In this document: piece after piece, positions 58,659 through 62,316 of the stretch | Layout of the letters: every line of letters begins with the position of its first letter | How positions within the stretch are numbered: the first letter of the stretch is position 1 | From: an uncultured bacterium | GTDB taxonomy: Bacteria; Patescibacteriota; Minisyncoccia; Phycocordibacterales; PALSA-1337 | Direction of reading: 5' to 3' | Assembly (NCBI GenBank): GCA_963701025.1 | Contig: OY969557.1 | Span: 570,042 to 634,041 of the forward strand | DNA: 64,000 nt | Position numbers and translations under genes: made by a program | Notes under the pieces: generated by a model | The model's input: the letters and a program-made list of their open reading frames with translations, nothing else | The model's database searches: none | What the model was told of the DNA's origin: nothing

Positions 58659-58719
58659 AAAATGGTGCTCCTGCATAGGTATGTCGCACAAAGGACATTG
58701 TGCAACGTCGTATTCCATG

Positions 58720-58884
58720 TTAGAGATGATTGACTTGCACGGCAGTCAAGCAATTTATCGCACTGTTTACAATCTTGTTGATTGATTCTTTTTCCATGTC
58801 AATCCCCTTTTTCAAGGTAGATTCCGCTAGGAAAATTGTAGTGCGTGCTTCTTTTAATAGGGCAACGATTTTTTCTTTATCCAT
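58720..58884 (-). pseudogene. HEPN-domain N-terminal fragment (54 aa) inside inter-repeat segment 1
   Basis: MDKEKIVALLKEARTTIFLAESTLKKGIDMEKESINKIVNSAINCLTAVQVNHL* resembles the first two helices of HEPN / nucleotidyltransferase-substrate-binding proteins. It is truncated, and is below the ORF-track size cutoff. Confidence 0.35.
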
Positions 58885-58997
58885 TTGGATTTTGTTTTTA
58901 TTACCCCTGTCCTATGTCACCTGCATAGGTATGTCGCACAAAGGACATTGTGCAACCAGTCCCCTCAAATTGCGAAAAGCAGAAAAAAGAATTTTAT

Positions 58998-59789
58998 TCA
59001 AACCTCGTAAAATTCGGCGGCGACTGAATTCCGCTGCCGGTCAACGTAAAGTTTTGCGGCGGGAATCGTGATTTCTTTGCCCTCCCACCAGTCGCGATTC
59101 CGGGGGCCGAAATCGGTTGCCAAATTGAACGTCCTGCCGCGTATCGCCATCCGGTAACGCTTTGACCTGTGGCTGAATCCTCCGGCTGTGATTTTCTTGC
59201 CCTTCGGAGAATACCACGATTTTTTCGGGACTGATTTGAAATGCGGGTCAAAATGATAGCTTGCGACCGTGAGCCCTTCGATCCAGTAATACACGCGCCC
59301 AAAATATGCGGCGTGAATCCACTTTTCCCACAGTCGCGGGGTGTAGCGCTGGGCATTGAGGCCGGGCGTCCATTGCAAAAGCCACAGGACGTAAATACCG
59401 TTCCGGGCGTAATCAATCGTCCGTTGCGCGATGGTTTCAAGGGAAAGCGAACTGATCTGCACTTCAATGGCAACCGGCACTCCGTTTATCTCCGCGCTTA
59501 CATCCGGCCGGTTCGTTCCGAGCGGGTGTTCCAACGCGACATTGCGGACATGGGGTTCCTTTCGGAGCGCCATGAAAATCTCCATTTTGCAGCGCCGGTG
59601 CTCGTCGCTTTCGTTTTCGGCATACAGACACGCAAGGGGATTGGCGTGGGCGAAGTGGTTCACCATGTGTCTGCCGGTCTTCAAAATGACTTCATCGCCG
59701 CAATCAGGACATTTGAACGGGCCGTGCGCTTTCGACGCCAAATATGCGGTGACGATCTCGCCGGTGAGTTTTTGCTTGGCGCGGAGCAT
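58998..59789 (-). CDS. Competence protein CoiA-like protein (zinc ribbon plus nuclease-like domain)
   Basis: 263 aa. FKCPDCGDEVILKTGRHMVNHFAHANPLAC is the CoiA N-terminal Zn-ribbon motif. Confidence 0.55.
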   Translation of the reverse strand: MLRAKQKLTGEIVTAYLASKAHGPFKCPDCGDEVILKTGRHMVNHFAHANPLACLYAENESDEHRRCKMEIFMALRKEPHVRNVALEHPLGTNRPDVSAEINGVPVAIEVQISSLSLETIAQRTIDYARNGIYVLWLLQWTPGLNAQRYTPRLWEKWIHAAYFGRVYYWIEGLTVASYHFDPHFKSVPKKSWYSPKGKKITAGGFSHRSKRYRMAIRGRTFNLATDFGPRNRDWWEGKEITIPAAKLYVDRQRNSVAAEFYEV

Positions 59790-59927
59790 GGGAAATGTGC
59801 GCCTATTTTACCATGACGAAAGGCTGCAAGAAAAATGAGTTGAAACATCACGTCAGTCTTCGACGCCACGTAGGCAGCATAAAGAGCATCACAAAAAAGC
59901 AACTGATTGGAATCAGTTGCATGTGTC

Positions 59928-60143
59928 TTAACGCTGTGGTGCGCTTCGCAAATCAATATTAGGCGTCAATACCGATGGAGAATTCCTGTTGGGATTGAAT
60001 GGTTTAGATGCTAGGGCAAATAAACCTGCCCAAAATGAATTGTAATCATCCGGCTGACAAGACCTAATATCCGCAGTGTCTGCGCTTTGTTTTGTAGATG
60101 GCTGTCGTATATTTGAAGGTGCTGGTTTAATTTTGTTAATCAC
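59928..60143 (-). CDS. Hypothetical small basic protein (GTG start)
   Basis: 71-aa track ORF. AGGAGG lies 8 nt upstream of the GTG. Confidence 0.25.
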   Translation of the reverse strand: MINKIKPAPSNIRQPSTKQSADTADIRSCQPDDYNSFWAGLFALASKPFNPNRNSPSVLTPNIDLRSAPQR

Positions 60144-60222
60144 TATTACAACCTCCTTTCTGAAATAATGCTCTCATATAAAAAGGAAAAAAGCTAGGTG
60201 TTGATTATTGATGTTTCAAGGC

Positions 60223-61482
60223 TCATTTAGTTGCTTTGGGTAGTGCTCCGGGCCAAGCCAAGCGGTGATCAATGCGATATTTATCAACATCCTTCCATAT
60301 ATTTCCATCATCGCTTTCGTGAAATGAAATACGATTAAGTTCAAGATAGGTGTCCGACTGAACGACCACCCCTTCATATACAGAACTAAAAGCCTTGAGA
60401 CATTCATCCCAAACGGATTCATACTCCTCAAATTTCTTTAAGCGCATTTTCAACAAGAAGCTGTATGCTCCACCACCCCAATAGACGCTAATATTTGCAA
60501 TTTTTTTTACTTCTTGAAATGGTAATAATGTCTCATAAATTTCGCGTGCAAAAATACGCTTATTCGCCGCGCTAGCACTGCGTTCGTCAATTCTAAATGC
60601 CGCAAAAACCCTTAGCGGGTGGGATTCCTTTGTTCCATCAAAGGCAAGTCGCCCTATAGTAAGACCTAGTCCGGATAATGCTTTATTCTCTTCATCCCGG
60701 TTTTCACTAAGACTATCGTAAATAAGTTTGCTGACATCCATGTTGTCGAGGCGTGAAAACGAAATTGTTGGTTTTGATGATAATGAGTGGAATCCATCAA
60801 CTTTGAATCGCATTACTGAACCATTTTGCAACCGCTTAAATTCTGCCAGAATCCTGTCAATTTCCTGCGATGTCACCCCTGGCCTTTCCCAGATTCTCAA
60901 CAATAGATCAATTCCGCCAATGACTCTATACAACGAAAACCCCTGAATGTTGGACTTTTTTAATGTATCACAAATCCAAAGCGGGTCATTTCTGGAATTC
61001 TGCCCTTTCAAAAAGTAATAGCATAAATAATCGCCAAGTCTTTCATGAACAAATGGGTTCCACCTGTAAATGCTCGATGGAATGGATTGAGTTCCTTGGG
61101 CTGTGAATTCACCGTGCAGCGCAAGGACGATTTGCTTTTCTATATCGGCAACAATAGAGCGAATATCCGGCCTCTTTTCCGGATTAAGTGACAGCATGTC
61201 CTTAACGAGCAGTGCCATCTCTTCACCCATCTTTGCTTGAACTCCGCCTAAGTTTATATTGCCCGATTTGTGTAGTGTTTCATATGCGGCAAACTTTTCA
61301 GTAGGCGATAATGCTGACGACACATAGGGCTTATGGCCAGTTATAGCTTCGTAAAATAACACCCCAAGCGAGTAAATATCAGATGGAAAAGATGGCACAT
61401 ACTTTCGGTCGCTTTTTGGAACAAATGCTTCTGGTGCCATATACTCCGGAGTTCCCTCAACTCCATGTGAATCGTCTAACAC
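60223..61482 (-). pseudogene. Ser/Thr protein kinase-like C-lobe plus about 300-aa unknown C-terminal domain, with the N-lobe and catalytic loop replaced by repeat copies
   Basis: GTPEYMAPE...DIYSLGVLFYEAITGHKPY...NPEKRPD (kinase subdomains VIII-XI) begin immediately after repeat 3. No VAIK, HRD or DFG motifs are present. The 506-aa track ORF only continues upstream by reading through repeats 3 and 4. Confidence 0.5.
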
Positions 61483-62021
61483 CCTGCATAGGTATGTCGC
61501 ACAAAGGACATTGTGCAACTCACCCCATCCTTTCTCCCATTGCTCACGACGATGTGTACCTGAATACGGCACAGACGGGTCTAAGAGGACTTCAAGTATC
61601 TTAATAATAGCTTGGTCAGTCTCTTTCTTATTGAGTAAACGGTATTTCATCTGTTTTATCATACCTGCATAGGTATGTCGCACAAAGGACATTGTGCAAC
61701 CAACTCGCCAGGCCACCAGGGATCTTCGACATAAAACGTGCATGAGGATGCGCCCACCGCCGTCATTTTTTCGACCAGCATTTCCTCTGTCGCCCTAGGA
61801 GATGACATGCCCAAAGCAAACACTATGTCCAGTCACGGTCAAGAATAATTGTTACGATTTAGAAATAACCCGGTGACACTATTGCCATTGCGTGGATGAA
61901 AACGAAGCCGAATATGATTCGTTTGTTTGCCGGGCCAAACGAATTGTGTGTGAAGGCAATTCTCTGACTAAACATTAAAAAACCCGACAAATGTCGGGTT
62001 GGAAACCGAGGGAAGCGTCAT

Positions 62022-62198
62022 TTAGCGGACATTCTGCTGAATGATCTTCATTACGCTCTGAGCGCACAATTCTGCCTCTCTCTTAGCCAACCCAAACGGG
62101 GAGGAGCGAAGGAAGCCGATGACAAGTTCTGAGAGGCTTTCGAAATAGGCTTGCGTGAAAGCCCCCTTGGTTAGTTTGCACGATTTATTATGTCTCAT
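62022..62198 (-). CDS. Small ORF (58 aa) with strong RBS and downstream terminator; TetR-HTH-like fragment
   Basis: GGAGGT lies 5 nt upstream of the ATG. Product MRHNKSCKLTKGAFTQAYFESLSELVIGFL.... A rho-independent terminator (cccgacaTTTgtcgggTTTTTT on the minus strand) lies at about 61978-62003. Below the ORF-track cutoff. Confidence 0.35.
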   Translation of the reverse strand: MRHNKSCKLTKGAFTQAYFESLSELVIGFLRSSPFGLAKREAELCAQSVMKIIQQNVR

Positions 62199-62316
62199 AC
62201 TACCTCCAGCAAAAGAAGTTTAACTTTAATAAAGAACTCATAACCCTAATATAAACGAAATGGTGTTTTTTGTAAAGCCCCTGCATAGGTATGTCGCACA
62301 AAGGACATTGTGCAAC

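Follow-up and report, generated by a model that had tools for sequence, protein, structure and literature searches.

A Patescibacteria cas1-cas2 locus with long DNA segments between CRISPR-type repeats

In CRISPR systems, canonical Cas1-Cas2 complexes are restricted by a fixed-distance ruler to prespacers of about 33 bp, and the usual spacers are ~35 bp long. To our knowledge, all characterised Cas1-Cas2 complexes measure their substrate and, again as far as we know, candidate-phyla bacteria are regarded as nearly devoid of CRISPR-Cas. The type V-C/V-D systems of these bacteria reportedly (Wright et al. 2019, Mol Cell) rely on a Cas1 "mini-integrase" that works without Cas2, takes spacers of ~17–19 bp and serves a Cas12 effector. 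Integration of long DNA by the Cas1 fold is known from Cas1-family casposases (PMC6977970, PMC5137440), and solitary repeat units that act as RNA anti-CRISPRs (Racr) are carried by mobile elements (PMC10651486).

Here we analysed a 64-kb stretch of an 876-kb Patescibacteria genome (contig OY969557.1; hereafter "the window", to which all coordinates refer unless a contig is named) in which cas1 and a divergent cas2 are followed by an array of CRISPR-type repeats with long, irregular DNA segments between them. We consider it likely that the locus is a stand-alone CRISPR adaptation module, whose integrase would insert long pieces of DNA without measuring them, each event duplicating the repeat. 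The observations behind this reading are the anatomy of the locus, exact donor copies of two of its segments, a pair of related loci with and without an insert, and recurrence of the arrangement throughout a clade of related Cas1 proteins.

Identical repeats beside cas1-cas2 and genes cut at their edges

We observed five perfect copies of the 37-nt repeat CCTGCATAGGTATGTCGCACAAAGGACATTGTGCAAC, starting at positions 58670, 58920, 61483, 61664 and 62280 (chance expectation 0). In the window the repeat is found only downstream of cas2, and its first copy begins 11 nt past the cas2 stop codon, directly downstream of the cas1-cas2 pair (57295–58658), which was absent from the original prediction made for this DNA. 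The stretches of DNA between successive repeats measure 213, 2526, 144 and 579 bp, and at least 1684 bp follow repeat 5 up to the end of the window, past which segment 5 continues. The features of the locus are listed here, with open reading frames abbreviated as ORFs and amino acids as aa.

57295–58344, plus strand: cas1, encoding a predicted integrase of 349 aa (Pfam Cas_Cas1, 5e-65; TIGR00287, 1.6e-69)
58341–58658, plus strand: divergent cas2, 105 aa, overlapping the cas1 stop codon (PADLOC Cas2b, 4e-8)
58659–58669, plus strand: short leader between the cas2 stop codon and repeat 1 (ending GGTGCTC); a GGCTC-type motif is kept before the first repeat in nearly all loci of the clade
58670–58706, plus strand: repeat 1, 37 nt, exact copy; homology with all related loci stops exactly at 58706
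58707–58919, strand not assigned: segment 1, 213 bp, G+C fraction 0.37; a 54-codon ORF (58720–58884, minus strand) of no recognised family
58920–58956, plus strand: repeat 2, exact copy
58957–61482, minus strand: segment 2, 2526 bp; a complete CoiA-like gene (58998–59789) and the C-terminal 419 codons of a kinase gene (60223–61482), cut at repeat 3
61483–61519, plus strand: repeat 3, exact copy
61520–61663, strand not assigned: segment 3, 144 bp; the start of a minus-strand gene (MKYRLLNKKETDQ…), open into repeat 3
61664–61700, plus strand: repeat 4, exact copy
61701–62279, minus strand: segment 4, 579–580 bp; the first 36 codons of a gene for a GAF/HATPase_c protein, a complete 58-aa ORF and a terminator hairpin
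62280–62316, plus strand: repeat 5, exact copy
62317–64000, plus strand: segment 5, at least 1684 bp; gntR lacking 21 codons, a gene for a glyoxalase-fold protein and the start of a gene for a ComB-like phosphatase

Several genes in the array end abruptly at a repeat, as the original prediction had claimed. The Pfam Pkinase match of the Ser/Thr kinase in segment 2 begins at profile position 157 (positions 157–259 of 263), and the protein is 77% identical to residues 203–622 of a 622-aa homologue, P0122, full-length relatives measuring 613–624 aa. The ATP-binding lobe and the catalytic loop are thus among the roughly 202 N-terminal residues that this kinase lacks. The kinase was correctly said to follow repeat 3 directly without its N-terminal lobe, but its native sequence does not start at GTPEYMAPE, as had been supposed; it starts eight residues earlier, with VLDDSHGVEGTPEY, at the first base past repeat 3. 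The GntR regulator of segment 5, likewise predicted to be truncated at repeat 5, matches its Pfam model only from position 12 of 64, and it lacks the first 21 codons of an intact copy found elsewhere that is 99.94–100% identical. When mapped onto full-length homologues, the breakpoints of the kinase (residue 203 of the homologue) and of gntR (63 nt inside the gene) both lie at a repeat edge. P0122 matches the mad6 and PD-T4-6 defence kinase models, and the neighbouring CoiA-like gene matches Pfam CoiA_N/CoiA_nuc.

The proposal that segment 1 carries the start of a HEPN gene was not confirmed: its ORF matched neither HEPN nor, at a significant level, any other family or structure in Pfam, NCBIfam, PHROGs or PDB, and it terminates at a stop codon of its own, 13 nt short of repeat 1. 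Segment 3, described as open and in frame, is indeed traversed by a 506-codon ORF (60223–61743, minus strand) that spans the C-terminus of the kinase, repeat 3, segment 3, repeat 4 and the start of segment 4. This ORF is a fusion artefact, and the 489-aa protein called from it in the public record (P0121) is an annotation artefact. Gene callers evidently fuse fragments across repeats, of which this 489-aa protein is an example, and fusion calls like P0121 could help to locate more arrays of this kind. The G+C fraction alternates roughly as described, at 0.37 in segment 1, 0.41 in segment 3, 0.42 in the kinase part of segment 2 and 0.54 in its CoiA part.

Interruption of genes exactly at the repeat edges would also be seen if the repeat were a small mobile element, resembling a miniature inverted-repeat transposable element (MITE) or a repetitive extragenic palindrome (REP), that had split resident genes on insertion, and the original prediction had allowed for a repeat that inserted into, or recombined, several genes. 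However, the two sides of each repeat are unrelated and are never two halves of one gene, so that contiguity across the repeat fails. Moreover, nowhere in the 64-kb window did we find the 202 residues that the kinase has lost or the 21 codons lost from gntR, and the repeat's confinement to the region downstream of cas2 is likewise at odds with such an element. We give this explanation virtually no chance of being correct. None of the segments matches the other 58.7 kb of the window at the DNA or the protein level.

The ends of the repeat are inverted (TGCACA at positions 3–8, TGTGCA at positions 30–35), besides an internal GCACAA/TTGTGC stem. Two alternative stems are possible in the repeat RNA, and the 6-bp GCACAA/TTGTGC stem is conserved almost without covariation. 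In a few lineages (L022, L042) both inverted termini change together. This symmetry is compatible with protein recognition of the DNA and with an RNA hairpin alike, and decides neither. Rfam yielded no CRISPR repeat family or other RNA in the array, its only matches being a tRNA-Arg and a sub-threshold small RNA (sRNA) match. The latter, to AbsR28 (61959–62035, minus strand; 25 bits against a gathering score of 50 bits), overlaps the terminator hairpin AACCCGACATTTGTCGGGTT that was brought in with segment 4, and is not an sRNA match. A scan for promoters and terminators found neither type of site enriched relative to shuffled sequence.

The genes in segments 1–4 lie antisense to cas transcription, and those in segment 5 and in the related loci L001 and L015 lie sense; an antisense logic for the inserts was considered and rejected on account of these sense-oriented genes. 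With the repeat taken as 37 nt, the lengths of all four bounded segments (213, 2526, 144 and 579 bp) are divisible by three, as are 6/10 across the clade, which is probably due to chance.

Upstream, the locus is flanked by tRNA-Arg, rpsT and ruvA. The large ORFs in the other 57 kb of the window encode housekeeping proteins (PNPase, UvrD, PBP1, PolA, the CCA-adding enzyme, PilB and ComM), and we recognised no Cas effector among the large ORFs of these 57 kb. Two adjacent large ORFs (603 and 624 aa; 20854–24552 and 27098–28738) have no Pfam match, and a TraG/HerA-like P-loop ATPase is encoded a few kb downstream of the pair.

Donor copies of two segments and an empty/occupied pair of relatives

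An exact look-up of the glyoxalase-fold protein of segment 5 led to a 367,688-bp contig (ERZ25039590 contig_25703; L087) and to Logan contig L088. Segment 5 (62317–64000) is 100% identical to L088:2263–3946 and 99.94% identical to L087:5436–7119, with identity beginning at the first base after repeat 5. The donor gntR is intact (223 aa), the breakpoint of segment 5 lies 63 nt inside it, and the donor sequence that precedes this point differs from the repeat. For segment 4, a look-up of the 58-aa ORF again pointed to the 367,688-bp contig (L097), on which 580 bp (L097:4919–5498; donor contig 132216–132795) are 100% identical to window positions 61701–62280. Here identity extends exactly from the edge of repeat 4 to that of repeat 5, and the segment keeps just the first 36 codons of a donor gene that encodes a 765-aa GAF/HATPase_c protein. 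Three donor junctions are known so far, and there is no repeat at the donor breakpoints of either segment. For segments 4 and 5, then, the donor genes are intact and identity starts or stops at the repeat edges, in agreement with the claim that genes are cut at these boundaries.

We noted that in L097:4910–5505 the donor is cut at one end between TG and CAAC, which recalls the TGCAAC with which the repeat terminates; at the opposite end, CCGCAT follows the donor sequence, and the repeat starts with CCTGCAT. This resemblance may reflect an end preference or chance. The segment 5 junction has no such resemblance to the repeat ends.

The two donor sites share one contig and one orientation, with about 25 kb between them. 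Genes of the donor region encode a tyrosine integrase, Rep-like proteins (HTH_36/RepA_N), TrwB/FtsK-like ATPases, DndB and GAAD/GASH; judging from these genes, the region looks like an integrative conjugative element. The named homologues of the donor-contig integrase are split between Verrucomicrobiae and Saccharimonadales metagenome-assembled genomes (MAGs). Segment 2 is colinear, at 76% nucleotide identity and minus RadC, with L089 (kinase-RadC-CoiA-TrwB-OLD-relaxase), and has no exact donor on record and no DNA match among plasmids. In L089:1090–5059 this kinase family is linked to RadC and a CoiA-like nuclease, beside TrwB, an OLD nuclease and a relaxase; the kinase-RadC-CoiA set may represent cargo that conjugative elements carry for defence or anti-defence. 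We found no donor for segments 1 and 3, short exact pieces of which had no match in IMG/VR. Exact-protein look-ups of Cas1, the CoiA-like protein and the segment 1 ORF returned no contig, and an exact search for the repeat in viral, genome and metagenome collections returned no match. The question of self- or foreign-derived fragments, which the original prediction had raised, is therefore answered in part: the rest of the window is excluded as a source, and segments 4 and 5 occur in a mobile-element-like region of another contig, with segments 1 and 3 left without a donor.

Two close relatives of the window locus, which share its ruvA-rpsT-cas1 synteny, differ by a single insert. L096 is empty (cas2-leader-repeat-flank), and L093 is occupied (cas2-leader-repeat-701 bp-repeat-same flank), its flank carrying RuvX/VTT/PilM. 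As judged from the two sequences, this pair bears what appears to be the signature of Cas1-Cas2 integration, in which staggered attack on both borders of the repeat would be followed by gap repair. Together with the exact donor copies that lack flanking repeats and the adjoining cas1-cas2, the pair supports the other option that had been put forward, spacer-like acquisition of the fragments between repeats.

Loci that have lost part of the module bear on its polarity. In L052 it is the distal repeat that is degenerate. In L052:5807–6130 (identical to L051), cas1 breaks off near codon 96 and continues directly into the first repeat at its 5' edge; in L031:2150–2270 it breaks off near codon 233 and meets the first repeat at that same edge, the sisters L014 and L016 being intact. 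In both of these independent lineages, the rest of cas1, cas2 and the leader are deleted. The deletions look like intramolecular integration events at the leader-repeat junction. Because the distal repeat is degenerate in L052 and the deletions in L031 and L052 end at the leader side of repeat 1, the data fit a leader on the cas2 side.

The donor contig also carries a repeat-like palindrome, ATTTCAACACCATGTCGCACAAGTTTTATTGTGCGAC (L087:5174–5210; L088:2001–2037; about 158578–158614 of the donor contig), which lies upstream of both the segment 5 breakpoint (by 225 bp) and the intact gntR (by 163 nt). The palindrome is identical to the clade repeats at 25/37 positions and matches GTCGCACAA-N6-TTGTGCRAC exactly. 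The chance expectation for such a site is about 1e-6 in the 23 kb examined, and 178 kb of control sequence contained no match at ≤4 mismatches. We found no repeat-like site within 5 kb of the segment 4 donor site. The palindrome could be a GntR operator, each arm being a TGT-N3-ACA box; it could be an integrase pseudo-target that biases capture towards neighbouring DNA; or, by analogy, it could be a solitary repeat mimic of the kind that mobile elements use against CRISPR systems (PMC10651486).

This palindrome also speaks for the only rival explanation with real support, namely that the CRISPR repeat serves a mobile element as attachment site, the element recombining via a repeat-like sequence of its own by means of its tyrosine integrase or of homologous recombination, and that later deletions leave the fragments between copies of the repeat. 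Such an element would account for the resemblance of the palindrome to the clade repeats at a distance of 225 bp from a breakpoint, for the tyrosine integrase encoded on the same donor element, and for the origin of segments 4 and 5 from one element in the same orientation. However, the segment 5 junction lies 225 bp off the palindrome rather than at it; the five repeats are identical, none is a hybrid with the palindrome, and they end in AAC, not GAC. Nor does the segment 4 donor have a repeat-like site within reach (5 kb), the segments of 144–213 bp that are flush at both ends would each need two precise deletions, and the L093/L096 pair is a simple 701-bp insert. We consider an attachment site to be improbable.

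Recurrence among Patescibacteria loci

Homologues of the window's Cas1 at 45–100% identity all come from Patescibacteria MAGs or metagenomes (Taylorbacteria, Nomurabacteria, Paceibacterota and Parcubacteria). Where a locus of this clade is covered far enough, the divergent cas2 comes after cas1 in nearly every case. The repeat lies 10–45 nt past cas2, has the form CCTGCA-N8-GTCGCACAA-N6-TTGTGCAAC and is preceded by a conserved GGCTC. We counted one to five repeats per locus, with inserts of 144–7672 bp, those outside the window being as follows.

L001: insert of 998 bp
L002 and L005 (identical arrays, independent assemblies): insert of 444 bp
L007: insert of 549 bp
L015: insert of 7672 bp
L090: insert of 166 bp
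L093: insert of 701 bp

With the window included, this amounts to ten distinct inserts in 7 loci from independent assemblies, with a median length of 564 bp (range 144–7672). No locus of the clade has spacers of 30–40 bp; more distant Cas1 proteins recovered by the same search (25–33% identity) adjoin ordinary arrays with a period of 72–78 nt. In L009, L014, L019, L023, L030, L032 and L042 a single repeat is followed by up to 9.6 kb of ordinary genes. No effector, Cas4 or Cas6 is encoded within about 10 kb of the clade loci (L001, L002, L090, L093, L096 and others).

Cut genes recur in these loci. In L001 a methyltransferase ORF runs into the repeat, and the last repeat abuts an intact trigger-factor gene, which marks the native flank. 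Of a DUF3825 domain, L093 holds just the C-terminal 70 positions. The 7.7-kb insert of L015 is a cluster of phage tail genes, encoding a collagen-like tail fibre and a minor tail protein, and past the second repeat of this locus lies an IS256-type transposase cut at profile position 269 of 379. The L015 insert has no DNA match among phages, and one of its tail proteins has no match in IMG/VR.

Variation in unit length, and the presence of whole genes in some units (the CoiA-like gene, the 58-aa ORF, the L015 methyltransferase), would suit an integron-like platform, in which the repeats serve as attC-type sites for a cassette-capturing site-specific recombinase. By contrast, no IntI-type or other tyrosine recombinase is encoded beside any of the loci, repeats are identical within an array, unlike attC sites, and most units carry cut genes in either orientation; the adjoining enzymes are Cas1 and Cas2. 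On this evidence we judge an integron-like platform to be very unlikely.

Recurrence also bears on whether the array is an assembly artefact, in which unrelated contigs were chained via a short shared repeat. Segments 4 and 5 are identical to another contig that is probably from the same study, and many short-read contigs of the clade break at the repeat (L006, L008, L016, L091 and L095 end in or just past the first copy), although such breaks are expected if the downstream sequence differs between strains. Against an artefact, the donor breakpoints have no repeat and offer nothing to chain through, the same architecture is found across several projects and assemblers (the arrays of L002 and L005 are identical in different assemblies), and the empty/occupied pair is clean. 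We regard chaining as extremely unlikely.

A 110-kb contig with a Cas1 identical to P0009 has a 106-aa and then a 216-aa ORF after cas2, unlike L002 and L005, in which a 93-aa ORF and then RNase Y follow; this comparison, made from gene tables only, suggests that the insert differs at the strain level. Among close relatives, the cas1-cas2-repeat unit was observed in at least four genome contexts: after rpsT/tRNA-Arg, after rsmE, between HU and RNase Y, and before HU. When window positions 57283–58706 were compared with L001, L002, L090 and L093, homology was confined to a stretch that begins about 12 nt ahead of the cas1 ATG and stops with the final base of the repeat. Because homology is limited to this unit in differing contexts, the cas1-cas2-repeat module itself seems to relocate.

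The E164/H224/D236/E239 motif of Cas1 is invariant in 27 members of the clade and aligns with solved Cas1 structures. The protein is closest to type I-G/I-D/I-C and general Cas1 models, and the Methanosarcina mazei casposase structure 6opm is a clear sequence relative (5.7e-20). The 105-aa Cas2 has no match in Pfam or NCBIfam; the clade Cas2 profile matches the solved Cas2 structures 3exc (4.5e-4), 7f84 and 4qr0. The N-terminal Asp that is usual elsewhere is replaced by W-E/R-T, and the C-terminal part differs from the usual one and has a CxxC motif. This Cas2 family is small: of 1.84 billion proteins, only 64 representative clusters match it. That cas1 and cas2 stay intact at identities as low as about 45% speaks for selection acting on the module. 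Since the Cas1 profile has no match in IMG/VR, the module does not appear to be virus-borne.

A candidate adaptation module and its comparison with known systems

We propose that the locus is a stand-alone adaptation module in a Paceibacteria-type Patescibacteria genome, which would consist of cas1, the divergent cas2, a leader of roughly 11 nt and the 37-nt repeat. Because the repeat is duplicated and the genes are adjacent, we infer that Cas1-Cas2 is the catalyst of insertion, which would take place at the leader side with no length ruler operating. The complex would bind the leader-repeat junction as usual, and would lack, or not use, a fixed-distance ruler, such that any double-stranded fragment with free 3' ends could be joined. 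Arbitrary double-stranded pieces of about 0.14 to 7.7 kb, derived from incoming mobile-element or phage DNA, would be integrated at the cas2-adjacent repeat. Fragment ends would fall anywhere, and it is because the inserted pieces have arbitrary ends that genes would be chopped flush with the repeat edges. Uptake of foreign DNA via pilus/ComM machinery is speculation, made plausible by PilB and ComM in the window and by pilus genes beside the loci of relatives.

Several points weigh against this proposal. The end of segment 5 and the native flank lie beyond the window, and segment 5 could be a larger resident element and not a bounded spacer. Most clade loci have one repeat only; therefore, either integration is rare or inserts are lost quickly. 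The proposal does not predict the repeat-like palindrome on the donor, 225 bp from one breakpoint. Tetranucleotide comparison did not place the organism of the donor contig, which could be a strain of the same lineage. Finally, the check for effectors covers 57 kb upstream and the genes of segment 5 in a genome of 876 kb, and ~10 kb per side in relatives.

As to what the module is for, we rank first a memory of, or decoy against, mobile elements with no Cas effector readout, second the occasional capture of genes, and third no use at all, the inserts being the product of residual integrase activity. We put forward tentatively, at somewhat less than even chances, that in a conserved Patescibacteria lineage the CRISPR adaptation module has become an effector-independent archive of kilobase-scale invader DNA at a single repeat, or a route of gene capture in minimal genomes, served by a natural, sequence-targeted and ruler-free long-DNA integrase. 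Readout of such an archive would proceed other than by Cas-guided cleavage, through long transcripts, homology-based interference or a decoy for the invader's proteins. A widespread effector-less module in candidate-phyla bacteria raises the question of the purpose of the stored DNA.

Standard CRISPR finders reject arrays with such long spacers. We found no description in the literature of a long-spacer Cas1-Cas2 locus without nearby effectors, although our coverage was incomplete and an earlier description elsewhere is possible; the candidate-phyla CRISPR papers checked describe ordinary systems or solo Cas4.

The locus shares with canonical CRISPR adaptation a Cas1 with intact active site, an adjacent Cas2, identical repeats of the 23–50-nt class (37 nt here) with inverted termini and a leader-proximal copy, duplication of the repeat on insertion, inserts derived from mobile elements or phage, and a degenerate distal repeat. 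The defining feature that it lacks is short, nearly uniform spacers: inserts here are irregular, at 144–7672 bp, whereas canonical ones are uniform, at ~26–72 bp. The arrays are also tiny (0–4 inserts), the leader measures only ~10–45 nt, Cas2 is highly divergent, and Cas4, Cas6 and an effector are lacking within about 10 kb of the clade loci. Like the type V-C/V-D mini-integrase, the locus represents adaptation machinery of candidate-phyla bacteria that departs from the usual spacer length; unlike it, the locus keeps Cas2, has very long inserts and has no nearby effector. Integrons have in common with it a fixed insertion point beside the integrase gene and units of variable length between recombination sites. 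They differ from it in that the locus has Cas1-Cas2 and not a tyrosine recombinase, identical repeats, and random fragments with cut genes instead of mobile cassettes. The donor palindrome, as a single repeat-like sequence on a mobile element, recalls the solitary repeat units of Racr (PMC10651486), but it is only 25/37 identical, sits where a GntR operator is expected, and would have no known Cas effector to sequester.

Casposons resemble the locus in that a Cas1-family integrase joins long DNA to a specific target with target duplication (PMC6977970, PMC5137440). By contrast, the locus has no family B polymerase, its inserts have no terminal inverted repeats, and its repeats are direct copies; what it takes up is arbitrary foreign DNA, whereas a casposon moves itself, and it has a Cas2 and a CRISPR-type repeat as its target. 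With no adjoining polymerase (the neighbours are tRNA, rpsT and ruvA) and no inverted ends, identity as a casposon was rejected. If our proposal is correct, a Cas1-Cas2 that places hundreds to thousands of bp at a defined 37-nt site would alter the view of this integrase family, and anyone wishing to insert long DNA site-specifically would have an obvious place to start. Such an integrase would then stand between the movement of long DNA by casposases and the storage of short, measured DNA in CRISPR adaptation, and would bear on how adaptation evolved.

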